Position numbers and translations under genes: made by a program. Below are positions 7,573 to 44,682 of a stretch of 64,000 nucleotides of DNA, in pieces. The first letter of the stretch is position 1; every line of letters begins with the position of its first letter. Under the pieces are notes generated by a model. It searched no databases, was not told where the DNA came from, and saw only the letters and a program-made list of their open reading frames with translations. The stretch is from Dehalococcoidia bacterium (lineage in GTDB: Bacteria; Chloroflexota; Dehalococcoidia; Lucifugimonadales; UBA3495): positions 898,778-962,777 of the forward strand of contig OZ242042.1 in NCBI GenBank assembly GCA_965204905.1. Direction: 5' to 3'.

Positions 7573-7900
7573 GGCACGGCACCGTCCTGGGGGATTAGCC
7601 GTGGGTCGGCTTGACCTGAGTTTATTGGGTTGGCGGTTAGGTTCGCTACGGGCTGTTGTCATCAAAAACTTGGCCGCCCCGTTGGTCGGGGCGGCCGCTG
7701 TCGTGGTTAGTCCGCTACGCATCAATTGTGCCAGCCGTCGGTGCCGACGCGCTACTGGCCACTGTCAGCAATTTTGGGCTTGGCGTCGTCGACTTCGCTA
7801 TCGAGGGACGTGCGCGCCCAAACCGGCTGGTTTGGCCTGTCGGTTCTGTGGTGTCCCATCGTTAGGGTAACGGCGTTTCGGTGACATTCCCCGGTGAGGC
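7573..7900 (-). promoter_or_regulatory. Conserved non-coding leader of family A (UCR-A1), includes a C-type repeat at 7815-7890
   Basis: About 200 nt alignable by eye with 12782-12965, 31276-31470 and 42048-42380. Indels break every reading frame between copies. Contains two sub-repeats of the form TTGATGAC...CGTAGCG.AC and a terminator hairpin. Confidence 0.6.
7661..7696 (-). terminator. Intrinsic terminator inside the family A leader
   Basis: Minus-sense GGCCGCCCC-GACCAAC-GGGGCGGCC followed by AAGUUUUUGAUGA, about 95 nt upstream of the GTG start of A1. Confidence 0.55.
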
Positions 7901-8002: not shown

Positions 8003-9178
8003 TTATTCGGGGAACTCGGCGGTGAGGTCCTCGATGAATTGCCACACGTTCGTCAGTTCGTCTGGTTCTGCGAGGTACCCGTCCGGCAGGTTGGCCAATC
8101 GTTCTACATCCTCTCGGTTGAAGGGCAGGGCGGCCGCGAGCTGGGACCGTTGGATAATGTCATTGGCATCTAGGGCTTCGAAAACCCTTCTCACCAATCG
8201 GGGTTCCTCAAATGGCTCAACGTCGTCGAACGGTTCGAGCGTATTCCACCCGCGTCTGTTGTAGCTGATGTAGAGCCGCCTGGATTCGTCCTTGTCGATT
8301 ATGTTGAGATCATGTGCCCGGTGAATCATCATCTTGACCGATGTGCGCCACTTGGTTTTCAGGGTTCTGAACACCTCCAAGGTCGGTCTGGTGAGGTCGG
8401 ATGAGAAAGTCTGTGCCGGCGTCAGAAATGCCGAAGCGAATCGGTCGGCCTGGGTTTCGATGAGTTTGAAGTACATTTTGGAATCGAATTCGGTGGATGA
8501 CACATTGCGGTGCAGTATCAGGTGCCCGAGTTCGTGGCCGACGTTGAATCGTGAACGGAACGCGGATTGGCCATCCGACCCCAAGACGATGTACGGTCGC
8601 TCAACCGATTCATCCCAAGTGGAAAAAGCATCGAGATTGGCGGTGCCCATCTCCATCTTCACCACGACTACCCCGTGATTCTCGGCCAGCAGGGTCATGT
8701 TGCTGATGGGTCCATCGCCCAGTTGCCAATTCCTGCGGGCCGTCCTCGCGATCTCTTCGATGTCTTGGTCGGTGATTGACCGCCAGCCACCACGGTCTTG
8801 GATTTCGGGAACATCCGCGTCGGGCAGACGCACGAATTGGCCAAGATACTGGAGTGTTTCGTGCAACCAGGTGAGCCGGTGCCTCGCGCGTGTCCTGGCT
8901 GACTTGGTCGTAGCGGCTCTGGAGCGTTCAAATACAGTCCTGTCTCGTTGCCGCGCCGGGTCCTCCACGGGCCGGAAGAAAAAAGCAGGCTTGAAATTCA
9001 AAGCGCGGCAGAGCTTGTCGAACACTGCAGGGCTGGGAGTGGTGTGCCCTTTTTCGTAAGACGAAATCGCTGACGAGGTGACACCTGATAGTTCCGCCAA
9101 GGCAATCGCAGTCATCTGTCGTGCTTCTCTGCCCTCTCTGAGCCGTTGTCCGACAAAACCTGGGCTACCAGAGCGCAT
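8003..9178 (-). CDS. XRE-type HTH fused to ImmA/IrrE (COG2856) zinc metallopeptidase
   Basis: N-terminal HTH (GQRLREGREARQMTAIALAELSGVTSSAISSYEKG) and the HELGHLILH zinc motif. Confidence 0.85.
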   Translation of the reverse strand: MRSGSPGFVGQRLREGREARQMTAIALAELSGVTSSAISSYEKGHTTPSPAVFDKLCRALNFKPAFFFRPVEDPARQRDRTVFERSRAATTKSARTRARHRLTWLHETLQYLGQFVRLPDADVPEIQDRGGWRSITDQDIEEIARTARRNWQLGDGPISNMTLLAENHGVVVVKMEMGTANLDAFSTWDESVERPYIVLGSDGQSAFRSRFNVGHELGHLILHRNVSSTEFDSKMYFKLIETQADRFASAFLTPAQTFSSDLTRPTLEVFRTLKTKWRTSVKMMIHRAHDLNIIDKDESRRLYISYNRRGWNTLEPFDDVEPFEEPRLVRRVFEALDANDIIQRSQLAAALPFNREDVERLANLPDGYLAEPDELTNVWQFIEDLTAEFPE

Positions 9179-9824
9179 GTTGCTTCCCTCCTTCCTGCGT
9201 CACCACGGTGACCCGGAAATCTTCGGTAACGTGTTCAAGGTCGGTGTGAGCGGTTGCGATCGAAGCAAGGTGCTCGTCTAGGTCGATGACGTCCGGTAGG
9301 TACTGGTCATCAATGTCGAGCATCCTGATCACTGTGAACCCGTGGCGTTGATGGTGGCCGGCTTCGGGTCCGTGTAATAATTGGAGATACAATGAGTGCT
9401 GGTCGTGAGGATTTGGTACCGGCATGATCTTGAGGTCGTGTCCTGCGATTCGAAAGTACGTTTGGCGCATGGCGTAGCGGCTTCGGTGGGCTGCCTTCCT
9501 GGGCACCCGATGCCGCCCTGTAACGGAGGACACGGTGATCAGCACGTTCTCCACCGTAACGATCACGTGATGGTGCGAACGGCGCGGGTTCGTGGGAAGA
9601 TCAGTTATGGGTCCTCCATCGGCTCCGCCGACGTCGAAGACCTCTTGGTTGATGTTGTGGTGCAGAAGCTGGCTGAACGCCGTTTTCGCGATGCGTTGGT
9701 CGTAGCCCTTTTCCACCAGGTCCGCGCCGGTTGCGCTGTAGGCACGCTTGATAGCGCTGTTAACGCCATCCAGAGCTTTGACGACTGCCGGAGAATCCAA
9801 TTCCAAAACTGGATATTGCACCAT
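9165..9824 (-). CDS. Hypothetical protein co-transcribed with the HTH-ImmA/IrrE gene
   Basis: 219-aa ORF overlapping the downstream gene by 14 nt. No motif recognised. Confidence 0.55.
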   Translation of the reverse strand: MVQYPVLELDSPAVVKALDGVNSAIKRAYSATGADLVEKGYDQRIAKTAFSQLLHHNINQEVFDVGGADGGPITDLPTNPRRSHHHVIVTVENVLITVSSVTGRHRVPRKAAHRSRYAMRQTYFRIAGHDLKIMPVPNPHDQHSLYLQLLHGPEAGHHQRHGFTVIRMLDIDDQYLPDVIDLDEHLASIATAHTDLEHVTEDFRVTVVTQEGGKQHALW

Positions 9825-10470: not shown

Positions 10471-11951
10471 CTAGCAGTCTGTCTGAAGATTAGGTTTTGT
10501 TGTTGATGGGACCGTGTTTTGGCGAGGGTTCACGCCGGTTGGGGGATGGGTGACGGTGGACTGACCGACAGACGAGAGTGGCGGAAGAGCTTGAGCAGGT
10601 TGTGGCCGGTGCAGATCAGCGACCACTCGCCCGCAACCTTGTCCAATCCCCGCAGCAGGAACTGCCGGAAGCCTCGGCCCTGCTTGATCTGGCCGAACAC
10701 CGGCTCCACCGTCTGCATGCGTAGCGCGTATCTCTTGCGACCCCGTTTGGTCTGCAACTTGCGGCGCATCCGGTCCCTGGGAGAGAGAGCTTTGGGGATG
10801 CGTCCTTTGGGTGCGGGCGGTGGTTTGTACCCGTGGCGGGTCTTCTCCGGCGCGACGAACGGGTCGGTGCCCAGGGCGTGTAAATCGGCAACGGCCTTTG
10901 CCGAGTAGTAACCGGCGTCGGCGGACACCTCCCGGGGCGCCACTCCCACATTGGCGATGGTCTCCTCGATCATCACCACCGCCTGCTGCTTGTCCGAGGC
11001 CTGAGTGGTGGCTCGGGCCGCAATGATCACCTGATGCTCATGGTCCACCACCGCCTGACAGTTGTAAGCCTGCAGGAAGTCCCGTCCCCCAGGACCGGGC
11101 ATGATGCGGGACTCCGGGTCAGTGAAGTTGCGCTGGGCCTGGTCATCGGGCACCCCAGGATGATCCTTGCCCTCCTCTGCGGCGCGCTCCGCCTCGGCCA
11201 TGGCCTCGGCTTCCAGCGCCGCCATGGCCTCCCGGATCTTCTCCAACCGACCCTCCCGAAAGGACAACTCCTCCGGCAACTCATCACCGCGCTTGTCCCT
11301 GCCATACCGGCGATCCTCCTCCTCATCCACCTCCTGGGCGCGGCGCAGCAACTCATCCACCTCACCCTGCAACTGCGCTTCCTTCTCTTGCATACGCTGG
11401 TAACTCATCGCCTTGTGCTTCGATGCGTTGGCCCGGACCTTGGTGCCGTCCAGCGCCACGTGGCCCAACTTCACCAGTCCCGCCCGCTGGCACAGCAACA
11501 ACACCTGCAGGAACAATCCCGACAGCGCCGCCAGGTGGTCCTTGCGGAAGTCCGAGATGGTGCGAAAGTCCGGCGTGTTGTTGGCCGCCAGCACCCGGAA
11601 GGCGATGCCTTCATGCAGTCTGGTGGCGATGCGCCGCGATGACGGCACCCCGACGCAATAGGCGTACAGCAGCACCTTCACCATCATCTTGGGATTGTAG
11701 GGCGGGCCACCGCGCCGCTCCTGCTCGTAGCGGGCCGTGATCTCCGACAGGTCCAACTGGTCCACCACGTCTGAGATGAAATAGGCCAGGTGACCCTCGG
11801 GCAACCACTCCTGCAGCGCCGCCGGCATCAGCAACTGCTGGTCAGGATCGTAAGGCAGATAGGTCTTGCTCATCACCGGCTCCCAACGACTGGACTGCCC
11901 CCATCATACGCTCTCCACCTCGCTGGCCCTGTTTCTCAGACAGGCTGCTAG
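10471..11951 (-). mobile_element. IS1182/IS5-like insertion sequence
   Basis: Imperfect terminal inverted repeats: CTAGCAGTCTGTCTGAAGA at 10471 and the reverse complement CTAGCAGCCTGTCTGAGAA at 11951. CTAG is present at both junctions (10471-10474 and 11948-11951), consistent with a 4-bp target duplication. One transposase ORF. Confidence 0.85.
10530..11876 (-). CDS. DDE transposase, IS1182-type (DUF772 N-terminus)
   Basis: LPEGHLAYFISDVVDQLDLS..GGPPYNPKMMVKVLLYAYCVGVPSSRRI and C-terminal FGQIKQGRGFRQFLLRGLDKVAGEWSLICTGHNLLKL. Confidence 0.9.
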   Translation of the reverse strand: MMSKTYLPYDPDQQLLMPAALQEWLPEGHLAYFISDVVDQLDLSEITARYEQERRGGPPYNPKMMVKVLLYAYCVGVPSSRRIATRLHEGIAFRVLAANNTPDFRTISDFRKDHLAALSGLFLQVLLLCQRAGLVKLGHVALDGTKVRANASKHKAMSYQRMQEKEAQLQGEVDELLRRAQEVDEEEDRRYGRDKRGDELPEELSFREGRLEKIREAMAALEAEAMAEAERAAEEGKDHPGVPDDQAQRNFTDPESRIMPGPGGRDFLQAYNCQAVVDHEHQVIIAARATTQASDKQQAVVMIEETIANVGVAPREVSADAGYYSAKAVADLHALGTDPFVAPEKTRHGYKPPPAPKGRIPKALSPRDRMRRKLQTKRGRKRYALRMQTVEPVFGQIKQGRGFRQFLLRGLDKVAGEWSLICTGHNLLKLFRHSRLSVSPPSPIPQPA

Positions 11952-12130
11952 GTTGATGAGGTTTTGCCAGTTCATGGATGGGCCTCCCGGGCAAATGGGA
12001 TTGATGGTCGAGATGTAGCAGGTTGTCGGGGGCAAAGTTTGGCTGTCCGGGTTGATGCCGCTGTTATTCGCCTGCTGGATGTTGCGCAGTTCCGGAGAGG
12101 GTTCGGTGCCGGTCTCTTCCCCCTCGTTGG

Positions 12131-12781
12131 TCAGAAGTCGGCGGTGGTTCCTTCTCCGTTCTGGGAGGCCTGGTCCACACGGTCGGGGCAGTCTGCGTCA
12201 GTAATGTCGCTTCTGCGACATTCCGCTTGGCTAGGCACCAGGATCGCCGGTTTAGCAGTTGCCGCTCTGCGGATCAGCGCTGTCAACTTGGCGACGAACG
12301 GGTCGTCATTGGTCAGTGCCGACACGTCCACGGCGTGGTCTTGGTAAGCGACATGCCCGGTGACCATCCGGCCTCGGTAGTGGTTCAGTGCCAATGGTAC
12401 AGCGTACTGGTAGATCATCACCTGGACGGCGTGGGATGGCCCGGCCCGGCCGGTCTTCGCGTCGATGATCACCACCTCTTGATCCTTCTGGGCGATGAGG
12501 TCGGGTTTGCCGGCCAGCGTTGCTAGGTTCCCGCGCAGGCGGAAGCTGTTCTGGTCCTCGGCGTAGACCCGGTATCCTCGCTCCTGCCAATCGTCTCTGA
12601 CTTCGTTGAGGAGCGCGGTGTGGTCGAGGAGCCAACGCGTCTGGTCAAAGTCCGACCGCGGCCGGTCCCAGCCCTGGTAATGGGCCTTGAACCAGACGGC
12701 CCACTCGCAGGAGTTCTCGCCGGTGAGCAGCCTCGGCAGCCAGGTTGCCCAGATGTAGGGGAAATCTCGTTGCTCTGCCAC
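12131..12781 (-). CDS. Cas4-like PD-(D/E)XK nuclease (family A, copy A2), Fe-S motif degraded
   Basis: Same length and motifs as A1/A3 (GKPDLI, IIDAKTG, QVMIYQY). The C-terminal CxxC reads CRRS (AECRRSDITDADC), so one cluster Cys is lost. Confidence 0.75.
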   Translation of the reverse strand: MAEQRDFPYIWATWLPRLLTGENSCEWAVWFKAHYQGWDRPRSDFDQTRWLLDHTALLNEVRDDWQERGYRVYAEDQNSFRLRGNLATLAGKPDLIAQKDQEVVIIDAKTGRAGPSHAVQVMIYQYAVPLALNHYRGRMVTGHVAYQDHAVDVSALTNDDPFVAKLTALIRRAATAKPAILVPSQAECRRSDITDADCPDRVDQASQNGEGTTADF

Positions 12782-12965
12782 GGCACGGCACCGTCCGGAA
12801 GATTAGCCGTGGGTCGGCTTGACCCGAGTGTATTGGGCGGTCGGTTGGGCGCGCTACTGGCTGCTGTCATCAAAAAACTTGGCCGCCCCGTTGGTCGGAG
12901 CGGCCGGTGTCGCGGTTCGTCCGCGACGCGTTAATTGTGCCAGTCGTTGGCTCGGGCACGCTACG
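12782..12965 (-). promoter_or_regulatory. Family A leader copy (UCR-A2)
   Basis: Aligns by eye to 7573-7760 and 31276-31470. Confidence 0.6.
12871..12905 (-). terminator. Intrinsic terminator in UCR-A2
   Basis: Minus-sense GGCCGCUCC-GACCAAC-GGGGCGGCC followed by a U6 tract. The single substitution gives U:G in minus sense but C:A in plus sense. Confidence 0.55.
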
Positions 12966-13088
12966 ACTTGCTATCATAAATCTCTGGGCAAGCTTACTGG
13001 TCGTTTCACGACGAGGGTATATCTGCGGCGAGGGAGGGCGGTCGGCTCCTCATAATTGCCCCAAAAGAAATTCAGCTTGGGGTGTGTT

Positions 13089-13631
13089 ATGGGTGAAGAA
13101 GGATTTTTCTCTTGGTGGCTGCGGCTGGGCGTGTTTTGGCTGTGCCTTTCAGTTGCGATCTCCGTGGCCTCGTTCATTTTTGGTGGATCTGATTGGCTGA
13201 CTGTTGGGATAGGCTTGGTGGTTCGATGGGTCGTCGTTTCGGTCTCTATCGCGGTTGGGGTCGGGCTGTGCATCTTCGCTGAGCGACTTTGGGACATTCT
13301 GACCGTCACCGAGTCCCGCCGTAGCAAACGCCGCAGTCAAGTCGTTGCTGGACTATCGGGGGTCGGATTTACTCGGGATCCGGCAAATCCCGACGTTTGG
13401 GTCGGAGGCGTTGTTGGTGTAGAAGTCAGGTGCGACGTCTCGGCGGGTATGTTCGCGCAGGTCTGCGCTTGCAGGCATTCCTATGCGGCTGATCGTCCGT
13501 GCTCAATCTGTTCTGCCCAACATTCCTACGCTCCCGGCCTGCTGTGTACGGATTGTCCGCCGGGTCAGCTGGCCCAAGTTATCGAAGCGCTCAAGATGGA
13601 CGGTGTGGCTGCACGCGCACAGGGAACCTAG
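13089..13631 (+). CDS. Hypothetical membrane protein with Cys-rich C-terminus
   Basis: ATG at 13089 preferred over the TTG at 13056. Three hydrophobic segments, then CACRHSY..CSICSAQHSY..CTDC. Confidence 0.4.
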   Translation: MGEEGFFSWWLRLGVFWLCLSVAISVASFIFGGSDWLTVGIGLVVRWVVVSVSIAVGVGLCIFAERLWDILTVTESRRSKRRSQVVAGLSGVGFTRDPANPDVWVGGVVGVEVRCDVSAGMFAQVCACRHSYAADRPCSICSAQHSYAPGLLCTDCPPGQLAQVIEALKMDGVAARAQGT

Positions 13632-13645
13632 TTACACCGTCTCAG

Positions 13646-14113
13646 CTAGTGCGCTGTGGCTGGGAGTCCCTCGCCGTCGGGTTCGTGACGGTCACTTTTC
13701 CGCCGGCCCGGTCGCCCTTGGCCCTCGATGTCTTGGTACTCCCGGCAGGTGTCGGCGAGGGTGCCGTCGGAGAGTATGACCTTCTCGTTGCCGCAGTCGC
13801 AGGTGCGCTCCAGGATCTGGAGGGCGAGGTCGAACTCCCGGTTTCCCGCGACATCGGCGTTGCAGTGTACACGCCTGATCCTATCATAGTGCTGGGAGTA
13901 CTTAGCGTAAGCGGACTGGCGCTTGTTGGCCTTGATATCCGCTCTACCGTGGGCGAGCCACTAGCCCAGGGTAACCGGAGAAATGTTGACGCCGCACTCG
14001 TGGGCTTGCCTACCTGACGACTTCCTGGTAAGTCGGATCGGTTTCTGGGAGGGCGCGTAGCCGGAGACGTTCTGAGCGGTGAAGAATCCGAGGCGGCTCG
14101 TGTGGTTCACCAT
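13646..14113 (-). pseudogene. Small HTH + zinc-ribbon gene (family B, copy B4), nonsense-mutated
   Basis: The C-terminal half is recognisably family B (REFDLALQILERTCDCGNEKVILSDGTLADTC), while the N-terminal third is diverged. An in-frame TAG replaces the Lys of the conserved TLGKW motif (reads TLG*WLAHGRADIKANKRQ). Confidence 0.7.
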
Positions 14114-14166
14114 GGTGCCCTCCGTGTTGTTTTCGTTTCCGCTCCTTTGTTGGTGGCGGATATGCA

Positions 14167-14250
14167 CCCAGACGGCCTGGTTTGGCTTGGGGGATCTGCG
14201 GTGGTCATTGATTAGGGTAACGGCGTTTCAGGCCAAGCGGTGGCGTCTGG
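14167..14250 (+). repeat. C-type structured repeat
   Basis: CCCAGACGGCCTGGTTTGG...TAGGGTAACGGCGTTT...GGTGGCGTCTGG. The two ends are complementary. It lies immediately 5' of B4 on the minus strand. Confidence 0.7.
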
Positions 14251-14321
14251 TGTCGCCGTGGTGGGTCTCTGTGCCGGCTGCCGGGCGGGAAAATAGTCCG
14301 ACAATCTGGGCGGTGTTAGCC

Positions 14322-14411
14322 GCGCTCAGGCGGGCCCGTTTGGGCCACGGCGGTGTTGGGCAAGGGAAATCGGCGAGCCTGCCGCGGCGCCAAACGGTGG
14401 CGTCCGGGCGC
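14322..14411 (+). repeat. E-type structured repeat
   Basis: GCGCTCAGGCGGGCCCGTTTGG ... GCCAAACGGTGGCGTCCGGGCGC. Confidence 0.7.
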
Positions 14412-14777
14412 GTTCTGGATGGCCACGCTGGCCGGGACGGGGTGGTCACCGCCGTCTCGGGTCGCGTTGGTGGCCCGGGCGGTGCGTTTTGCGGGAGGTG
14501 TGTCTGGCGATGGCATCCGGTGATGCTTTGTCAGGCGGCCGTCCTCAAATCCCGTTCCAAACGGTCCTCATCGCTCCTGGGCGGGTCAAGGTCGTCGTCT
14601 CCGTATTGGCCAAGAACCTGAGGAGCAGGAACAGTCGCCCTTACCGCCATCCAACCCCTGACCTGCCGCAGTCATAGCGGTCCACATCGCCATCCCGTTC
14701 CAGCCGGCAAACGCCCAAGTCGCTGACGGTGGAGCCGCCGCGTTCGGCAACCGCTACCAACCGTTAGTTGAAGAGCG

Positions 14778-15221
14778 TCACGTCGTCCCGCAGTCGGTGG
14801 AGTCATCGTAAGACGTGGCGTCTGCATCCAGGCAGACCAAGGTTCGCCACCCCGGGTAGGCCGGCGAGTAGTCGTAGGGCAAAGGCCCCTCCTGCTGGAC
14901 TAGCAAATGCTCGACGTCTTTGTCATCCATGGACCAGTTGAACCTCACCGTGTTGGCGCCGGAACCGGTGTGGCTCAACCCCAGGTTGCCGGGAGCGTCA
15001 ATGCGCTTGCGGTTCGCGTTGGCCGCACCCATCATCCGGCGATGTCCGTTGGCCTTGCGCACCTCGATCCGGCAGACGTAACTCCGGTCCGAATCCAACC
15101 CGTCGAAAACCGCGGTCTTGTGACGCCGGCTCAACTGGATGGTTTCCCATTGGCAACCAGGTTCTTGGAGTCGCCACTTGGCGACCGGTCCGACGTAGTT
15201 GTGGTTCGGCCGGGAACCCAC
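14778..15221 (-). CDS. Hypothetical protein with Fn3-like segments
   Basis: 147-aa ORF. YVCRIEVRKANG and TVRFNWS resemble Fn3 strands. Confidence 0.4.
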   Translation of the reverse strand: MGSRPNHNYVGPVAKWRLQEPGCQWETIQLSRRHKTAVFDGLDSDRSYVCRIEVRKANGHRRMMGAANANRKRIDAPGNLGLSHTGSGANTVRFNWSMDDKDVEHLLVQQEGPLPYDYSPAYPGWRTLVCLDADATSYDDSTDCGTT

Positions 15222-30624: not shown

Positions 30625-31275
30625 CTAGAAGTCGTCGGTGGCGCAGTCCTCGGGCTCGTACTCGTCTTCCAAGCGTTCCGGGCAGTCTGCGGCCGTGATG
30701 TCGCAGAAGCAGCACTCCTGTCGGCTGAGCACTCGTCTTGCCGGTTCGTCGGCTGACAGGCGGCGGATCAGCGCGCCCAGGTTCTGGATGAACTGCTCGT
30801 CGACGGCCTCTGCCGAAACGCGGACCGTGTGATCGCGGTAGGTGACCTGCCCCCTGAGTTTGGCGTTTCGATACCGCTGGAGTGCCTTGGGGATGGCGTA
30901 CAGGTAGATCATGACCTGGACGGTGTGGCTTGGGCTTTGGTGGCCGGTCTTGGCGTCGACGATGACGGCGTGGTCCTCCCTGCGGGCGATGATGTCAGGT
31001 CGGCCGGCGAGTGTCGCGGTCTTGCCGTGGAGTTCAAACCGGTTTTGGGCCTCGATGTCGACGTCGTGGCCGCCGACGGTCCAGTTGGCGATGCGCTGGT
31101 TGAGGAGCGCGCTGTGGTCGAGCATCGACTTGGCTCGGTCGAAGTCGGACGGGACGCGTTCCCAGCTTTGATGGTGGGCCTTGAACCAGATGGCCCACTC
31201 GCAGGAGTTCTCGCCGGTGAGTAGCCTGGGCAGCCAGGTTGCCCAGATGTAGGGGAAATCTCGTTGCTCGGCCAC
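30625..31275 (-). CDS. Cas4-like PD-(D/E)XK nuclease (family A, copy A3)
   Basis: GTG start. ENSCEW, GRPDII..AVIVDAKTG, QVMIYLY and CCFCDITAADC. Confidence 0.8.
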   Translation of the reverse strand: MAEQRDFPYIWATWLPRLLTGENSCEWAIWFKAHHQSWERVPSDFDRAKSMLDHSALLNQRIANWTVGGHDVDIEAQNRFELHGKTATLAGRPDIIARREDHAVIVDAKTGHQSPSHTVQVMIYLYAIPKALQRYRNAKLRGQVTYRDHTVRVSAEAVDEQFIQNLGALIRRLSADEPARRVLSRQECCFCDITAADCPERLEDEYEPEDCATDDF

Positions 31276-31470
31276 GGCACGGCGCCGTCCGGAGGATTAG
31301 CCGTGGGTCAGCTTGACCTGAGTGTATTGGGCGGTTTGGGTGCGCTACGGGCTGCTGTCATCAAAAACTTGGCCGCCCCGTTGGTCAGGGCGGCCGGTGT
31401 CGCGGTTGGTCCGTGACGTGTCCATTGTGTCAGGTGTGGGCTCGGGTTCGCCAAGGCTTGGTGTCATCAA
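31276..31470 (-). promoter_or_regulatory. Family A leader copy (UCR-A3)
   Basis: Aligns by eye to the other UCR-A copies. Confidence 0.6.
31361..31395 (-). terminator. Intrinsic terminator in UCR-A3
   Basis: Minus-sense GGCCGCCCU-GACCAAC-GGGGCGGCC followed by AAGUUUUUGAUGA. The closing pair is U:G in minus sense. Confidence 0.55.
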
Positions 31471-31574
31471 TCGTTGGGGACGGTTGGGTTTGGTTCCGGC
31501 GCAGGAACGGACGGGGCAGAGGTCGGTCGGGTCTGCCGGGTTTGCCGTTGGCGGCGTTTTTGATGGTGGGCGGG

Positions 31575-31625
31575 CCTTACGTCGATCGCCGGTGCGGTCG
31601 TCCATGGTCCTCGAGGTCTTGGGGT
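31575..31625 (-). pseudogene. Family B 3'-terminal remnant (B6)
   Basis: cgatcgccggtgcggtcgtccatggtcctcgaggtcttgg matches the last codons of B2 (QDLEDQGRP.RR). Confidence 0.4.
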
Positions 31626-31771
31626 CTTCGGCTCGGCTGTTGGTGAACTGCTTGCAGAGGGTGTTTTGGTCGACCGGTTGGTAGCTGGGCATGTCCTGTC
31701 TGAGCTGTTCAGTCACCGGTTTCCCTACCATTGGCTCACGTCTGTCCTTCGGTAGTTTCGGGAGTGAGCAA

Positions 31772-32533
31772 ATGCTTGGTATGGGACTCAGTACGCCGGC
31801 TGCGGTCGCCGTGGCGTCCAAGGATATCCGGGTTTACTTTGGCAGCCCGATGGCGTACATCGTCGCGATGACGTTCATGTTAGCTACGGGTGTTGCTTTC
31901 CTGTGGGATCTCGGTTCCCCGTTCCCGGAGGCGTCCTTGGCGAATTTCTTTGGGGGAAGCGTTCACGCCGGGAACGTGTTTGGCGCTGCCCTCGTGCTTA
32001 TACCGTTGGGCCCGATCTTGACGATGCGTCTTTTGGCTGAGGAGCGGAAGATGGGTACCTTGGAGTTATTGCTCACTGCACCGGTGCGCGATTGGGAGGT
32101 GATACTGGGCAAGTACTTGGCCAGTCTGGTCTTCTTGGTCTTCATGCTGGTTCTAACGGGCTACTATGTGTTGCTCCTCTCTGTGTTCGGGCGCCCGGAC
32201 GTTGGTCCGATCCTTTCTGGCTACTTGGGGATAGTGCTGTATGGGATGGTCGCCTTGTCGGTCGGGATTTTTTCTTCCGTGTTGACGAGCAATCAGGTCG
32301 TTGCTGCGGTGTTGGGAACCGGCATTATGGGTCTGCTCTATGGAGTGAGCCGACTGGGACAGGTGGTTGGCGGGACATTTGGTGACCTTCTGGTCTTGGT
32401 GGGATTGGAGGGTCGGCTGGATGATTTCATCGTGGGGATCGTTGATTCTTCCAGCATCGTTTATTTCGTTTCTCTGGTCTGCTTGTTCTTGTTCTTGGCT
32501 TGGCGTGTTCTCGAATCGCGGCGCTGGCGGTAG
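31772..32533 (+). CDS. ABC-2 type transporter permease (GldF-like), with no ATPase partner nearby
   Basis: KDIRVYFGSPMAYIV, LLAEERKMGTLELLLTAPVRDWEVILGKYLA, and six hydrophobic segments. Confidence 0.7.
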   Translation: MLGMGLSTPAAVAVASKDIRVYFGSPMAYIVAMTFMLATGVAFLWDLGSPFPEASLANFFGGSVHAGNVFGAALVLIPLGPILTMRLLAEERKMGTLELLLTAPVRDWEVILGKYLASLVFLVFMLVLTGYYVLLLSVFGRPDVGPILSGYLGIVLYGMVALSVGIFSSVLTSNQVVAAVLGTGIMGLLYGVSRLGQVVGGTFGDLLVLVGLEGRLDDFIVGIVDSSSIVYFVSLVCLFLFLAWRVLESRRWR

Positions 32534-32537
32534 GCAC

Positions 32538-32990
32538 TCACATCTCGGCCGTTCGTTTCTGTGATGCTTGTGTGATTTTGCGCCGGGCCGGCCGTCCTTG
32601 GTCCTCGAGGTCCTGACACTGTCTGCAGGATTCGGCGAGGGTGCCGTCGGGGAGTATGGTCTTCTCGTTCCCGCAGTCGCAGGTTCGCTCCAGGATCTGG
32701 AGGGCGAGGTCGAACTCCCGGGTGCGGTTGGCGTCGGCGGCGCAGTGTTCGCGCTTGAGTTGGTCGAATTTGATAGCGAACCGGGCGTAGGCGGTTTGAC
32801 GCTTGTTGGCTTTGATGTCGGCGCGGCCTTTGGAGACCCACTTGCCGAGGGTGCTGGGGGACATGGAGACGCCGTACTCGCTGGCGTGTCTGACGACGTC
32901 GTGGTAGGTGCCGTCGGTATCGGGGAGGGCGCGCAGGACGGCGGCGATGTTCGGAGCGGTGAATTGTGCGGTGTTGTTGAAGTTGGTCAT
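32538..32990 (-). CDS. Small HTH + zinc-ribbon protein (family B, copy B1)
   Basis: 150 aa. HTH-like YHDVVRHASEYGVSMSPSTLGKWVSKGR, then CDCGNEK...CRQC. Confidence 0.7.
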   Translation of the reverse strand: MTNFNNTAQFTAPNIAAVLRALPDTDGTYHDVVRHASEYGVSMSPSTLGKWVSKGRADIKANKRQTAYARFAIKFDQLKREHCAADANRTREFDLALQILERTCDCGNEKTILPDGTLAESCRQCQDLEDQGRPARRKITQASQKRTAEM

Positions 32991-33038
32991 GGTGTCCTCC
33001 TGGTGGCTCTCGGTTTCTCCTCCAGGTGTGGGACTTGT

Positions 33039-33126
33039 GCTTGGACGGGCTCAGTTTGGGCTGATTGGCCGGGCCGGCCCGTCGGGTAGGATAACGGCGG
33101 TTGGGGCGAAACGGTATTGTCTTGGG
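33039..33126 (+). repeat. C-type structured repeat, 5' of B1
   Basis: GCTTGGACGGGCTCAGTTTGGG...GGGTAGGATAACGG...GCGAAACGGTATTGTCTTGGG. Confidence 0.7.
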
Positions 33127-33511
33127 TTGCTGTGCAGGGCCTTTTCAAAGTTGTGCGATTGAAGTCTATCCGCTCGTCCTGAGCTGCCGTAGGTCCGCCA
33201 GTGGCGGGTCGAAGGACGCGCTCGTGGTTCGACGGGCTCCCGCCTCAGGCGGACGTTCCGCACCATGAGCGAGCACAGGGGACTTTGGAGCGGCCCTGGT
33301 TGCTGTGGCGGGCTGATTATCAGGGCACCGGGTAGCGGAACGGGCGACCCATCAGAAACACGCCAAATCCGGCCCGTAGCCGAATTTTTGCGCCGCCCTC
33401 GAATAGTATTGTGGAATCGAGGAGAGGCCGTCACGGGGCGTCTGGGAGGTGTCCTCGCCCCTTCATTTTTCGGGGTTGTGCGTCCGTTCTACCCGCGTGG
33501 GGTGAGAGTGT

Positions 33512-40272: not shown

Positions 40273-41901
40273 TCAAGATTGGACGCCGATGATCTTGTCC
40301 CAGTCGGTTGACTGCTGGTAGGCGTAGGCGGCCCTCATGAGGAGCGGGTCGTCGAAGTAGCGGCCGACCAGCTGCATGCTGACTGGGAGACCAGCTGACG
40401 ACTTGCCCACGGGAAGGGCGAGGGCTGGATGCCCGGTGTAGTTGAAGGGCAGAGTGTTGTGAGAGACGCTCGAGTTCACCGTCGCCAGGTTCTCCTCCAC
40501 GGCCTCCAGGTAGCTACCCGGAGTTTGGTTCTTGGGCGCCGTCATGATGCATGTGGGCATCACGAGCACGTCGAGGTTAGCAAGTACGGCGTCATAGGCT
40601 TTGATGTAGGTGGGACGCACATTCTGGGCCTTGGCGTACACCCGGCCGTGGTAGTTGCGCCGGCTCAACTCGGCGGCGATGAGCGACAGCTTGCTGCGTG
40701 GCGCAAGCACGTCGGCCTGAGAGGCCCACAGCTTGTTAATGGCGGCGATGACGGAGGCGGGGTAGTAGGTCCGGGCGAAGGCGCCGAAGAACCCAGTTTT
40801 AAAAATGGCGAGGGCGCCTTCGCCCGTGAGCGCGGCCTGGGCCGCGCGGATGGTGTGGTGCTCCGGGACGGACACCTGGGATACGTCGGCACCTGCCTCT
40901 GCGAGGACGTCGACCGCCGCCATCACCAGGTCGCGCACATCGGCCTCGGCATCGTCGAAGCCCTCCTCGAGCACCCCGATGCGCAGCCCGGACACACCGT
41001 CGGCCAGCCGGCCGAGCAGGTCAATGCTGGTGGGGACGTTTCGTGTCTGGCGGGGATCGTAAGGGTCGTAACCCGCCGTGGCCTGGAGGGTAGCCGCTGC
41101 ATCCTCCACGGTACGGGTCAACGGACCCGTGTAGTCGATGCTCTGGTCCGAGCCGAAGCCGATACCGAAATGCGACAGCAATCCGAAGGTGGGCTTGTGT
41201 CCGACGATGCCGGAGAAAGCCGCCGGGATACGGATGGAGCCGCCCTGGTCGCCGCCGAAGGAGATGTCCACATCCCCGGCGGCCACGGCCGCGGCGGAGC
41301 CCGAGGACGAACCGCCGGTCACGTGATGGTGGTCGTGGGGATTGAGGGGACGGCCGTAGTCGCCGATGGCGCCGCCGGTGCCGAAGCCTCCACTCAGGCC
41401 GTTCATGACGTTCTTGCCGATGATCGTGCCCCCCTCCTTCAGCACCCGGGTGACGACAGTTGCGTCGAAGTCGGGGATGAAGCCTTCGAGGGCGAAGGAG
41501 CCGAAGCTCATGGGTATGCCTGCCACGGCGATGTGGTCCTTGTAACTGACTGTCTTGCCGGCAAGCAGACCTTCGGCCGCCCCTTCGATTCGGCATTTCC
41601 ACATCCAGGCGTTGAGTGGGTCTTCTTCCGCGCTCGGCCGGTACCCGGGCTCGCGGGCGGTAGAGACCATCGGAGGTTTGGGCTCCTCCAACCGGGCCTG
41701 CACGAAGGTGTCCAACTGTCCCAGCTGTTCCACCAGGTACTTCTGGTACGTAACGGCCTCATCGGGACTCAGGTGAATCCCCAACTCCTTGGCCACGGCC
41801 ACCACTTCATCGACGTCAGGTGCTGCGTACATGAGGCTCTTCTCCTCTGACTGTAGACTTCCTGGATCGGCGGGATTTGAATCGAGATTTTCTATTTCCA
41901 C
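40273..41901 (-). CDS. Amidase-signature family enzyme (GatA-like amidase)
   Basis: GGSSSGSAAAVAAG signature and 542 aa from a GTG start. An alternative ATG lies at 41832. Confidence 0.9.
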   Translation of the reverse strand: MEIENLDSNPADPGSLQSEEKSLMYAAPDVDEVVAVAKELGIHLSPDEAVTYQKYLVEQLGQLDTFVQARLEEPKPPMVSTAREPGYRPSAEEDPLNAWMWKCRIEGAAEGLLAGKTVSYKDHIAVAGIPMSFGSFALEGFIPDFDATVVTRVLKEGGTIIGKNVMNGLSGGFGTGGAIGDYGRPLNPHDHHHVTGGSSSGSAAAVAAGDVDISFGGDQGGSIRIPAAFSGIVGHKPTFGLLSHFGIGFGSDQSIDYTGPLTRTVEDAAATLQATAGYDPYDPRQTRNVPTSIDLLGRLADGVSGLRIGVLEEGFDDAEADVRDLVMAAVDVLAEAGADVSQVSVPEHHTIRAAQAALTGEGALAIFKTGFFGAFARTYYPASVIAAINKLWASQADVLAPRSKLSLIAAELSRRNYHGRVYAKAQNVRPTYIKAYDAVLANLDVLVMPTCIMTAPKNQTPGSYLEAVEENLATVNSSVSHNTLPFNYTGHPALALPVGKSSAGLPVSMQLVGRYFDDPLLMRAAYAYQQSTDWDKIIGVQS

Positions 41902-42047
41902 CGGTCCCGGCCTTATCTGATGAAACGAGGGGAGAGTACGCCCGCCCCTGGAAGCCTGTCAACAATCATCCCCCCGCCTTCAGGTTCGATTTCACTCTTC
42001 CCCAGCTTATGCGAGCATTATTCATGGTCATACAGAACCACGGTAAG

Positions 42048-42380
42048 CCACGGCGCGGCACCGTCCGATGGAGTAGCCGTGGGTCGGCCTGTCTCGAGTC
42101 TATGGGGCGGTGCGTTGGGGTCGCGCTATGGGCGGCTGTCATCAAAAACTTGGCCGCCCCGTTGGTCAGGGCGGCCGGTGTCGCGGTTGGTCCGCGACGG
42201 GTCCATTGTGTCAGTTGTGGGCTCAGGTCCGCTACGGCTTGGTGTCATCAGATTGCCGCTCTGATGCCGCTGTCTTCGCTATCGAGGGACGCGCGCCCAG
42301 ACGGGCTGTGCTGGCTTGTCGGGTCTGCCGTGTCCCATCGTTGGGTAACCGCGTTTTGGCCGAAATGGGAGTGTGTGGGG
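42048..42380 (-). promoter_or_regulatory. Family A leader copy (UCR-A4) with no Cas4-like gene, about 150 nt upstream of the amidase; includes a C-type repeat at 42296-42380
   Basis: Aligns with UCR-A1/A3 over its whole length and even retains the CCAC (GTG start) remnant at 42048. Confidence 0.6.
42141..42176 (-). terminator. Intrinsic terminator in UCR-A4
   Basis: Same hairpin and U5 tract as UCR-A3. Confidence 0.55.
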
Positions 42381-42571
42381 TCGTCGTGTCACGTCGGAGG
42401 GTTGCCTGCCGGGTAGCAATAGGTGCGGCTCATAACTGGCCGCCCTTGGGTGTCAATCAGGGAGATTTCGTTACTCCGATCCCAGATCGTTCTCGTAAGG
42501 GACTGTCCAGCAATCTGACAGGTTTCGTAACCGGCCGGGCGGTTTCTCAGGAACACGCTCTGGTTGCATGC

Positions 42572-42943
42572 TCACTGGCCAGTCTCGTCGCTGATCACCT
42601 GGCGCAGTTGGACGATGCCTTGTGTCGTTGCCCGCCGTGCGGTCCTGAGTTCTGTTGGGCTCAGGTTGGCTTGGTAGAAGTGGGAATGCAGTCTTTCGGC
42701 GGCTGCCCAGTCCGAAACCCACCGTTCTGAACCCTGCAGGTCGCGCAGGTTGGTTGCAGTGTTGCGGTACGTTCCGTGGCTCAATGCCGGCCATCCTCTG
42801 AGTTCTGACACGGCCAGCGATAGTTGGGCATAGGCCCCCCACAGTAGTTCGGCGGCAATCATGGTGTTGCCGCCGGGGTTGAATTCTTGGTTGGAGCGTT
42901 CCATGAACTCCATGCTGGCGTCGAGCCGCTGCTGGGTGTTCAT
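42572..42943 (-). CDS. Hypothetical helical protein, PaREP1/HEPN-like pattern
   Basis: AAELLWGAYAQLSLAVSELRGWPALSH. 4-nt overlap with the upstream gene. Confidence 0.4.
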   Translation of the reverse strand: MNTQQRLDASMEFMERSNQEFNPGGNTMIAAELLWGAYAQLSLAVSELRGWPALSHGTYRNTATNLRDLQGSERWVSDWAAAERLHSHFYQANLSPTELRTARRATTQGIVQLRQVISDETGQ

Positions 42944-43632
42944 GCGGTTGCCCGCCTCTCGGCGTTCAGGTGGTTCGCCAGCTGGATGGCTCGCCTGGCG
43001 AAATTCCTGGCGTCTTCGTCGGAGCCGTTTTCGCTGTCGTATCCCATGCTGAACTTTACCAAGTCGGGCTGGGCCATGGCGGCGCTGAACGCGCTGGTCA
43101 GGTTATGGCCTAACTCTGATGAGTCGGCTAAGGCTTGGTGAACATCCCAGGTGATTTCTGGGTTCCGCCCAGTTGCCAGTAGTTCGACAGCTTCGTGGAC
43201 TCCGTCTTCGTCGTGGGACCAACCGTTTCGGGCGGCGATGGCGGCTATGGAACATATCACGGCGCTGGCCAGGCTTTCCGTGGCTTGCTGGTGTTGCATA
43301 TCCAGAAAATACAGGTCGGCTCGACTGAAGTAGTGAGTGGCTCGCTCGGTGGCGACTTCGTCTATGGTGTCGCTGAACTTATCTGCGACTGGAGCGTAGT
43401 CACGTTGGCTGTGCTGGTGCATTTGGGGGTGTATGGCGCCCTTCGTTGCTACGGCCGCCATGTGGGCGGCGTTGAGGGCGTCGGTGATCGGACGGCGGCT
43501 CTTGCTCACATCAACCCTTGCCAGCAGGTTATTCCGCAGTCTGTCGGCTTCGGCGGCGTTGACGGTGCCGACTTCCTTCTCGTAGGCGGCGATGGCGACG
43601 CGTTCCGCCAGGTCCAAGATGGTTTCATTCAT
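42940..43632 (-). CDS. Hypothetical helical protein, second PaREP1/HEPN-like pattern
   Basis: ATESLASAVICSIAAIAARNGWSHDEDGVH. Confidence 0.4.
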   Translation of the reverse strand: MNETILDLAERVAIAAYEKEVGTVNAAEADRLRNNLLARVDVSKSRRPITDALNAAHMAAVATKGAIHPQMHQHSQRDYAPVADKFSDTIDEVATERATHYFSRADLYFLDMQHQQATESLASAVICSIAAIAARNGWSHDEDGVHEAVELLATGRNPEITWDVHQALADSSELGHNLTSAFSAAMAQPDLVKFSMGYDSENGSDEDARNFARRAIQLANHLNAERRATA

Positions 43633-44103
43633 GCTGGTCTGCTCCCGTATGATGCGGGCCGCGTCGGTTTGGCAAGCCTCGAGTTTTGGCGACGCCCTTG
43701 ACCAACTGGAGCCGGCTGGTCAGTTCTTTTCGGGGGCTTGGTGGACATCGCGGTGGGCAAGTTCGGCGCGGGCTTGAACTCGTAGCTGACGGCAGTTTGT
43801 AACTAGAGTAACCTTTTTGCAACGGTTTGGTCAGTCTATATTCCCTACAATGGCCACGCCGGCGGGAAGTAACGCATCCCGCCGGCTGGACGGATGGAAT
43901 GAGGTTGTCATCCGCCCCGTCCAGAGGGCCGGGTCCGGCAAGGAACCGGCACTTGAAATTTGAAAGTCATCTGGCTCCGTGCGTTCCGCATGGTTCGGAC
44001 TCGTCCCACACCGCGTTTACCGGGTTCCGATGCGCCACAGCGCCAGGCGCACCAAACCGGCAAACGACTGACCGCATTCCTTATCGGCGAAAATCGACAG
44101 GCC

Positions 44104-44523
44104 CTACGGCGATCGCCGGGGCGGTCGTCCTTGGTCTTCAAGGTCCTGGCACTGGCGGCAGGTGTCGGCGAGGGTGCCGTCGGGGAGTATGGTCTTCTCG
44201 TTGCCGCAGTCGCAGGTTCGCTCCAGGATCTGGAGAGCGAGGTCGAACTCCCGGGTGCGGTTGTCGGCGGCGGCGCAGTGTTCGCGCTTGAGTTTGTCGT
44301 ACTTCAGGGCGAACCGGGCGTAGGCGGTTTGACGCTTGTTGGCCTTGATGTCGGAGCGGCCTTTGGAGACCCACTTGCCGAGGGTGGTGGGGGACAGGGC
44401 GACGCCGTACTCGCTGACCTGTCTGATGACGTCGTGGTAGGTGCCGTCGGTATCGGGGAGGGCGCGCAGGACGGCGGCGATGTTCGGAGCGGTGAATCGT
44501 GCGGTCTTGTTATCGTTGGCCAT
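44104..44523 (-). CDS. Small HTH + zinc-ribbon protein (family B, copy B2)
   Basis: 139 aa. TLGKWVSKGRSDIKANKRQTAYARFA and CDCGNEK..CRQC. Confidence 0.7.
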   Translation of the reverse strand: MANDNKTARFTAPNIAAVLRALPDTDGTYHDVIRQVSEYGVALSPTTLGKWVSKGRSDIKANKRQTAYARFALKYDKLKREHCAAADNRTREFDLALQILERTCDCGNEKTILPDGTLADTCRQCQDLEDQGRPPRRSP

Positions 44524-44570
44524 GGTGTCCTCCTGGCAGTCTTCGTTCTCTCCTCCAGGTGGGACTTGTG

Positions 44571-44656
44571 CTCAGCCGGGCTGGTTTGGCCTATTTGGCC
44601 GTACGGGCCCGTGGGGTAGGATAACGGTGTTTGGGGCGAAATGGTAGCGTCTCGGG
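44571..44656 (+). repeat. C-type structured repeat, 5' of B2
   Basis: CTCAGCCGGGCTGGTTTGG...GGGTAGGATAACGG...GCGAAATGGTAGCGTCTCGGG. Confidence 0.7.
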
Positions 44657-44666
44657 TTGCTTACCA

Positions 44667-44682
44667 GGCGATTTCGCTACTC
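44667..44682 (-). repeat. Junction motif copy M3
   Basis: Plus strand GGCGATTTCGCTACTC, reverse complement GAGTAGCGAAATCGCC. Confidence 0.6.

Follow-up and report, generated by a model that had tools for sequence, protein, structure and literature searches.

Whenever two genes keep their order while unrelated DNA comes and goes between them, the question arises of whether a dedicated cassette system or a plain hotspot of recombination is at work. A locus of this kind, locus 2, is found in a Dehalococcoidia bacterium (G000; 4.09 Mb + 0.13 Mb, 62% G+C), within a 64,000-nt stretch that we call the window, that is, the whole stretch of DNA analysed (898778-962777 of contig C1). On the minus strand, going from high to low coordinates, the locus comprises an E-type and a C-type repeat unit, a gene of protein family B (B4), a unique stretch, a leader, a Cas4-like nuclease of family A (A2) and an insertion sequence (IS). 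On balance, we favour a reading that takes locus 2 for a copy, now decaying, of a module specific to this lineage and formed by B and A, in which the spacer between both genes is a hotspot shuffled by homology at small regulatory cassettes. An earlier note on this DNA had given the same order from the E unit to A2, with a Cys-rich plus-strand open reading frame (ORF) between B and the A2 leader (UCR-A2), and every element was found in its place. The features of the locus are the following.

~14297..14481, minus strand: E-type unit of a co-oriented intergenic repeat family (nhmmer; 6 further copies in G000, E down to 2e-22)
14148..14295, minus strand: C-type unit of the same repeat family (nhmmer; 12 further copies in G000)
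13646..14113, minus strand: B4, a family B pseudogene (alignment with intact relatives)
~12989-13695: unique stretch with a plus-strand ORF
13089..13631, plus strand: locus 2 cargo, a 180-amino-acid ORFan antisense to B and A (hydropathy, one relative)
12782..12988, minus strand: UCR-A2, a 207-nt leader with 5 further full copies, which ends exactly at the GTG start of A
12131..12781, minus strand: A2, a 216-amino-acid Cas4-like PD-(D/E)xK nuclease (Pfam PF12705, PDDEXK_1, E = 9.9e-9)
10530..11952, minus strand: IS element with a 448-amino-acid DDE_Tnp_1_6 / DUF772 transposase (Pfam)

Linkage of B and A and the DNA between them

The earlier note had pointed to other genomes as the place to look for B and A together, and there the two genes are linked far above chance. 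Of the 26 B loci in five other closed genomes, 13 are followed within 7 kb by an A in the same orientation, whereas 2000 random placements gave 0.16 such cases on average and never more than 2. The gaps between both genes at these 13 loci are either short, with no cargo (123, 123, 157 and 163 nt, together with one 17-nt overlap), or range from 1229 to 5012 nt (eight loci). Seen from the other side, B lies upstream of 14 of 41 A loci and downstream of 4 of 41. In 8 of a further 16 B loci, fetched from 11 other metagenome-assembled genomes (MAGs) and given L-numbers below, an A or A fragment in the same orientation follows within 7 kb. Many B and A copies are broken in the genomes searched. At 626989-627189 of contig C1 in G404 (G401-G404 being among the other B-bearing genomes compared), residues 1-35 of B run straight into residues 171-209 of A; this fusion is a deletion that joined both genes, and as such evidence of recombination inside the module.

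What lies between B and A varies freely, as a catalogue of the interval reveals. The layout of locus 2 recurs twice in the window with other cargo, as the earlier note had described, at 30625-33138 (locus 3) and at 42047-44668 (locus 4), the last of which keeps the leader and has an amidase gene in place of A. The cargoes of the window are an ORFan with two transmembrane segments, a GldF-like ABC-2 permease (in locus 3, standing alone, as no ATPase partner is encoded in its vicinity), and a PaREP1-like gene with a 230-amino-acid gene; in loci 2 and 3, the cargo lies on the strand opposite to B and A. Elsewhere, the interval holds a nucleotidyltransferase (L011), small membrane peptides (L013), a GIY-YIG nuclease (L023), Fic/DOC (G403), TPR proteins (G401 and L016), a LuxR-PAS regulator (L016) or a 365-amino-acid protein with no assigned family (G402). 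There is no cargo at all in L009 (twice), L021, two loci of G404 and the G000 copy at 386 kb.

The junctions of these cargoes can be followed by comparing L011 and L013, two loci of one genome. The two are ~95% identical in the B 3′ end and in the P1 unit (the promoter-terminator unit described below), and 100% identical in P2, the putative promoter of A, and in the start of A. Some 190 nt are also shared beyond the terminator, after which unrelated cargo of ~0.7-0.8 kb follows until ~20 nt before P2. L013 carries an extra 339 nt between direct repeats of ~48 nt, which consist of the B end plus the promoter motif. In the window, direct repeats of 35 nt, copies of the B 3′ end (31587-31621 and 32581-32615, 30/35 identical), stand at both sides of the locus 3 cargo, and the displaced native B end with its downstream spacer adjoins the leader. 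Two unlike sequences, the end of B and the promoter motif, make up the bracketing repeats. Loci 2 and 3 agree in their B tails up to the same CCGGCG and then part, and the tail of locus 4 departs a few bases past the stop codon. At locus 2, the final bases of B gave way to the insertion, together with a ~115-nt spacer that is present in locus 3 and in the copy at 386 kb. Since locus 2 has no direct repeat of its own, the mechanism proposed for it is extrapolated from locus 3 and from the L011/L013 pair.

The cargo of locus 2 deserves a closer description. Its plus-strand ORF spans 13056-13631, with a likely ATG start at 13089, and encodes a protein with two predicted hydrophobic (membrane) helices and a Cys-rich C-terminus. 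The codon score is neutral (-0.004 per codon; G+C at third codon positions, 0.59), and the plus strand is T-rich here, a bias that alone favours hydrophobic ORFs. No Pfam, PADLOC or NCBIfam family matched the protein. A single relative was found among 5.8 billion proteins, 82% identical over the 180 amino acids with no gaps; it keeps 7/7 of the C-terminal cysteines, has one Cys of the membrane part changed to Val, and differs conservatively in the helices. The cargo is probably a real ORFan gene, and it may be the only part of locus 2 that is still under selection.

The two genes of the module and their decay in locus 2

A2 has an intact reading frame that starts at GTG. The catalytic residues of family A (D94, D107, K109, Q120 and Y124) are invariant in 12/12 sequences of each of two alignments and are all kept in A2. 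The family also carries four cysteines (C25, C188, C191 and C198) in a 4Fe-4S pattern, all of which are present in A1 and A3. In A2, position 191 is a serine (CRRS), as the earlier note had seen, whereas the other 22 of 23 aligned family A proteins (11 from each alignment, including relatives 66-87% identical to A2) read C-x-x-C, so that the loss of this cysteine is private to A2. Family A resembles the Cas4 / RecB-family 4Fe-4S nucleases (PF01930, PF12705, TIGR00372, PDB 4r5q) in its D...D-x-K and Q-x3-Y motifs, in the four-cysteine pattern and in its size of ~216 amino acids. Unlike Cas4, however, it scores 28.5 (A2) and 37 bits (A3) against the TIGR00372 equivalog cut-off of 65, and is set apart by a conserved N-terminus of its own and by a T-T-x-D-F at the C-terminus, besides the cluster cysteine missing in A2. 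With PF01930, A3 reaches 26.9 bits (cut-off 22.7) and A2 does not match. The matches of family A to the Cas4 and Druantia DruK models of PADLOC are weak, with scores at the superfamily level. No Cas family was found among the 50 window ORFs scanned by Pfam, and the repeat scan of the window found no CRISPR-type family.

Family A is large, with 802 clusters at E <= 1e-10. It is present in 44 of 400 other genomes of the class that were searched, in a single copy in 43 of these 44, and G000 has 6 full copies plus ~6 fragments. The rsmG (GidB) gene adjoins A in 3/3 loci checked by Pfam, which come from family f29, the source of most fetched loci, and rpsL is near A in the one locus where that ORF was scanned; the rsmG of G000 has no adjoining A. 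Because it is single-copy in other Dehalococcoidia, beside rsmG in f29, and missing from that place in G000, A is taken as an old chromosomal gene of the Dehalococcoidia that became multi-copy in this lineage.

Family B, on the other hand, is a small protein family new to the sources searched. Intact members have 139-150 amino acids and a predicted structure of five helices followed by a CxC...CxxC zinc ribbon (AlphaFold; predicted local distance difference test, pLDDT, 66.7). No Pfam, PADLOC or NCBIfam family matched B, and a Foldseek search of its model against the PDB gave no match at E <= 0.001. The best VIA-align score of the model (Z 5.4) is within noise for helical models, the B profile reached no better than E = 0.3 against PDB sequences, and the ESM Atlas gave no usable match. 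The small-terminase model phrog_4102 weakly matches one of five B proteins scanned (E = 0.001). Only 32 relatives occur among 5.8 billion proteins, and all 16 genomic B loci that were located belong, by their record titles, to Dehalococcoidia MAGs. Against the 400 other genomes of the class, the B query found one marginal match of 34 residues (E = 3.6e-4), so that B as such was not detected with it in the genomes searched.

B4 belongs to a subfamily with the intact members P0018 and P0020, and it still has a ribosome site of the AGGAGG type (GGAGGG at ~14119-14124). The earlier note had read it as inactivated in its TLGKW motif, and indeed a TAG at 13961-13963 replaces the K found in intact relatives. 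The damage goes further: a 4-nt deletion and a 4-nt insertion shift residues ~20-38 out of frame, the shifted frame itself containing a TAG; the fourth zinc ligand is gone (CRQC to CREY); and the C-terminal tail is replaced past GRPGRR (~13696). These lesions are not assembly errors, since contigs from 3 short-read runs (2 studies) cover 13945-14095 or more with 0 differences. B4 is a true pseudogene, more decayed than its single stop had suggested. No circular junction was found in the contigs that cover locus 2.

Downstream of A2, the edge of the IS element (11952) lies 179 nt past the stop codon, and its 53-nt end (11900-11952) is 100% identical at 4 other places of the genome. With at least 4 lesions in B4, a cluster cysteine lost from A2 and an IS at its end, locus 2 is the decaying copy that the earlier note had taken it for.

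The leader, its promoter motif and the repeat units

The leader of A2 is built from smaller elements, and a motif scan of G000 locates sites of its promoter motif elsewhere in the genome:

12959..12980, minus strand: P1, a degenerate copy of the promoter motif (TTGATGACAGCAGCCCGTAGCG with 5 mismatches)
12934-12942, minus strand: extended -10 TGGCACAAT after P1 (sequence)
12909-12927, minus strand: hairpin H1, 7 bp (sequence, pairing counts)
12881-12905, minus strand: intrinsic terminator H2, 10 pairs, 9 of them GC, then AAGTTTTTTG (terminator scan)
12871-12880, minus strand: T-run (sequence)
12827..12873, minus strand: P2, putative promoter of A2, with the motif at 12852-12873, a -35-like TAGCGC formed by the last bases of the motif, an 18-nt spacer and a -10-like TACACT at 12827-12832
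12782..12826, minus strand: predicted 5′ untranslated region of A2, with an inverted repeat CCACGGC...GCCGTGG that overlaps the GTG start
894299, 896596, 979257, 1057934-1064033, 1219452 and 1587829 of contig C1: motif sites in G000 (motif scan)

In 11 copies, 93.6% of the cells of the hairpins pair, against 29-56% with the partners slid, and two pairs show compensatory changes. Both hairpins have AC(C/G)AA loops. As judged by sequence, P1, H1, H2 and the T-run would make up a promoter-plus-terminator unit of ~60 nt, which lies at 12871-12942 of the window and again at 7657-7737, 31356-31436 and 42137-42217. Copies of this unit stand alone at 1035584, 1035805 and 1183049 of C1, and others come after B in L011 and L013, in another genome. 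It may be a gene for a small RNA or else a promoter-terminator cassette that is empty; neither Rfam at gathering threshold nor ARAGORN (tRNA and tmRNA genes) gave any match in the whole window. The leader as a whole would be a promoter/terminator composite rather than a site specific to cassettes. The copy at 42047-42251 ends at its GTG and is followed, ~150 nt on, by a gene for a 542-amino-acid amidase (gene region 40273-42251) that replaces A and has native codon usage, which looks like promoter capture or replacement of A. A contig joint between 12963 and 14212 was considered as a cargo-free allele of locus 2 and discarded; it carries 26 differences and belongs to a paralogous copy, in which the C repeat is fused to the UCR as upstream of A1.

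When the upstream regions of 20 A genes or fragments from 6 genomes are aligned, they share the core TTGATGACAGCAGSCCNTWGCG, followed after 17-19 nt by a TAnAcT box. The 16 fetched loci contain 16 motif hits: 13 precede the start of an A gene or fragment by 77-94 nt, and the remaining 3 occur just after B, with up to 3 mismatches to the degenerate core. Single-copy A genes of other families (11 loci) lack the motif in their upstream regions at up to 5 mismatches. G000 has 30 hits at this threshold, against 4 in a reversed-sequence control. The motif precedes three imuB-like genes, one of them followed by dnaE2 (31-2466 of the window), and also a radC gene, a Uma2-like nuclease and several sigma70_r4/HARE-HTH paralogues. 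On the basis of this gene content alone, we infer that it may mark a shared, LexA-independent regulon of the DNA-damage type.

The consensus of LexA-type boxes is GAAC-N4-GTTC. Control of the motif genes by LexA was considered and rejected, as no box of this kind occurs near imuB, A2 or radC. The lexA and recA genes themselves have ordinary TTGACA-type promoters and GAAC-N4-GTTC-like boxes (one mismatch each), and no motif. The imuB gene is seemingly leaderless, its ATG lying 7 nt past the -10 box. At the edge of the island, a mutagenesis cassette is partly duplicated (L028, 893554-898077 of C1), with an SRAP (YedK-like) gene divergent from a truncated imuB copy, and then a second, full imuB with dnaE2. 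An array of five motif-headed units, 1.26-2.28 kb apart on one strand, is found at 1057214-1069888 (L027). It includes three paralogous sigma70_r4/HARE-HTH proteins of 374-414 amino acids and ends with an A nuclease, beyond which an SNF2 helicase and a SWIM protein are encoded; on its other side, the array is flanked by a large serine recombinase (LSR).

The repeat units upstream of B4 are ~100-150 nt long, tandem and co-oriented. The E and C types, which have the core CCAGACGCCACCGTTTGGC and the end GCCCGCCTGAGCGC in common, are therefore variants of one repeat family, whose nhmmer E-values reach 1e-58 and whose further copies in G000 are all on the minus strand of C1. The units bear inverted ends, GTTTGG...CCAAAC. 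The C unit runs into a region of ~190 nt upstream of the B genes, which is kept in 6/6 aligned B loci with a TAYCCT -10-like box.

Competing explanations and known systems

How could such a spacer be rebuilt time and again? In the reading that we favour, B (~140 amino acids, helical, with a zinc ribbon) and then A (216 amino acids, Cas4-like, with a 4Fe-4S cluster and its own promoter) would form a two-gene module. In the sponge-type lineage, A would have multiplied together with B in hyperplastic islands of defence genes, IS elements and, in relatives, LSRs. The spacer between them would consist of small cassettes: the B 3′ end, P1 with its hairpin and intrinsic terminator, and P2 driving A. 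Copies of these sequences of 20-50 nt lie in direct orientation at many places, so that recombination between them, whether homologous or guided by micro-homology, could insert, delete or swap the intervening DNA, a mechanism that we infer from few junctions. As such exchanges swap whatever lies in between, the spacer would gather unrelated accessory genes, whether toxin-antitoxin-like, membrane, nuclease or TPR. Locus 2 would stand at a stage in which B is dead, A2 is short of one cluster ligand and an IS has settled just downstream.

Several observations weigh against this reading. The cargo junctions of locus 2 show no direct repeat, nor does the right one show a stump of B, the best match being 17/20 with a gap, and the contigs that cover the locus show no variant without the cargo. 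The 35-nt repeat of locus 3 need not be a duplication made by insertion, as it could instead stem from a second B gene of which a stump is left. Half of the B loci in the closed genomes (13/26) have no A within 7 kb, and A is ~25 times commoner than B (802 vs 32 protein clusters), so that A does not need B. A consensus sigma-70 scan of 11900-14800 found 0 promoter-like sites and the proposed -35 and -10 boxes match the consensus weakly; that the P1/P2 motif would act as a promoter is read from sequence alone. Finally, several relatives have LSRs at a distance of 2-7 kb from B or A, which makes a site-specific route conceivable.

Such a route is the basis of a different explanation, where the B-A units are left-end relics of small LSR elements composed of B, A, cargo, a short Zn-ribbon recombinase-like protein, small regulators and the LSR. 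The island would have grown by repeated integration beside resident copies, with later loss of the recombinase ends. A block of this composition (B, F11, a short Zn_ribbon_recom protein, F26, HTH_31 and LSR) does recur in L015, L018 and L020, LSRs are also near B in L011 and L022, and one database protein joins a resolvase fragment to a B fragment. In G000, where LSRs stand near A at 1057, 1187 and 1495 kb, a short Zn_ribbon_recom protein and then an LSR abutting housekeeping genes come after the A copy at 1498 kb, and the other two LSRs accompany an A copy at 1057 kb and an A fragment at 1181 kb. However, the ends of such elements are not defined, and 7/16 fetched B loci have neither A nor LSR called within 10 kb. 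Crossover by an LSR leaves a 2-bp core, unlike the direct repeats of 35-48 nt found here. We regard the whole explanation as unlikely because the window has no PF00239 (Resolvase) domain, the nearest being ~21 kb beyond its end; because A is syntenic, single-copy and chromosomal in other Dehalococcoidia; and because LSRs are not known to leave long direct repeats.

The earlier note had left two options, a recombination hotspot or a cassette system, and they fared differently. A dedicated, integron-like system would use the ~100-nt C/E units or the 22-nt motif as sites for an enzyme that inserts cassettes between fixed B and A genes, an idea encouraged by the co-orientation of the units and their inverted GTTTGG...CCAAAC ends, by the direct repeats that flank some cargo, and by the array of five motif-headed units at 1057-1064 kb of G000. 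No tyrosine recombinase is encoded in the window either (PF00589: 10 matches in the genome, 0 within 898778-962777). Moreover, two of three window cargoes are antisense, the junctions of loci 2 and 3 are unlike that of locus 4, the bracketing repeats are of two different sequences, and the motif also precedes ordinary repair genes. Two repeat sequences of 35-48 nt, junctions that move, cargo in either orientation and a window with no recombinase domain are evidence against an enzyme acting at a fixed site and agree with exchange between short regulatory cassettes, to which the existence of A as an old single-copy gene elsewhere can be added. A dedicated system thus seems quite improbable to us, whereas the hotspot with conserved flanks is sustained by the linkage of B and A, the free variation of the cargo and the swap between L011 and L013.

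We see equally little room for the possibility that B and A are an anti-phage defence or toxin-antitoxin-like pair, whose copies would be diversified paralogues in a defence island and whose inserts would be unrelated neighbours. The surroundings are suggestive. The window is an island that begins within the dnaE2-type polymerase gene and contains GmrSD, a split Dsr1, LRR/FN3 giants, several DDE transposases and long non-coding stretches rich in repeats. A RosmerTA-type pair at 8003-9824 lies just upstream of the A1 locus (RmrA, with HTH and M78 peptidase, E = 9e-125; RmrT, E = 1.6e-10). Abi_alpha, MazF-like and Nmad3 genes occur in related loci, and A has its weak resemblance to Cas4 and DruK. 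Yet this resemblance is only at the superfamily level and B has no PADLOC match; A is found alone and core-like beside rsmG in f29; many copies are broken; and the promoter motif of A is common to translesion-synthesis genes, not to defence genes.

A bolder version of the favoured hotspot, which we consider very improbable, would turn the B-A unit into a chromosomal gene-capture device triggered by DNA damage. The imuB-dnaE2-type promoter would induce A and a ~60-nt transcript from P1, A would process DNA ends, and circles or fragments bounded by 20-50-nt cassettes would be captured at the spacer with target duplication, as an integrase-free, homology-guided counterpart of the integron in sponge symbionts.

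Taken as a shuffled hotspot, locus 2 offers a sequence-level view of how the hypervariable islands of uncultured sponge-type Dehalococcoidia get rebuilt. Short promoter/terminator repeats seem to serve as portable homology for swapping accessory genes (toxin-antitoxin-like, membrane, eukaryote-like TPR) between fixed flanks. Locus 2 itself is a relic, and mainly one data point in this wider pattern. Three of its components had no annotation in the sources searched: the B family, the motif that ties a multi-copy Cas4-like nuclease to imuB-dnaE2, and the promoter-hairpin-terminator unit, which may be an RNA gene. A full-text literature search, judged from its search results, found no paper on the B-A module or on the promoter motif.

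Among known systems, integrons and clusters of attC sites lacking integron-integrases (CALIN) share with the B-A loci the co-oriented units, the ~100-nt repeats with inverted ends and the varying gene content. The B-A window, in contrast, has no integrase, its units carry promoter-like motifs of their own, its cargo often runs antisense, and the position of the junctions varies. The consensus order of attC sites is RYYYAAC...GTTRRRY, different from the GTTTGG...CCAAAC ends of the C and E units. Accessory-gene hotspots, such as the ‘morons’ and the defence hotspots of P2/P4-like elements, have conserved flanks around unrelated cargo in either orientation, often defence- or toxin-antitoxin-like, or around none. 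B and A likewise flank unrelated cargo or nothing, but they are multi-copy in one chromosome and no bounded mobile element is defined for them.

The closest parallel in kind may be that of the PeSL cassettes of T4-type phages, for which a 2010 report (PMC2839356) describes a promoter with a stem-loop terminator, repeated in the same direction within hyperplastic regions that abound in non-essential ORFans, and a modular shuffling of genes. As in that description, the B-A cassettes join a promoter to a stem-loop terminator (from sequence and pairing counts here), repeat in direct orientation, and bound indels and replacements, as seen between L011 and L013 and in the UCR that stands before A, before the amidase gene or alone. 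The B-A case differs in being chromosomal and not of a phage, in having an unrelated motif common to imuB-dnaE2 and radC, and in placing its cassettes between fixed B and A genes. Mini-circles and promoter and terminator activity belong to the PeSL side of the comparison, while the B-A cassettes are known from their sequences.

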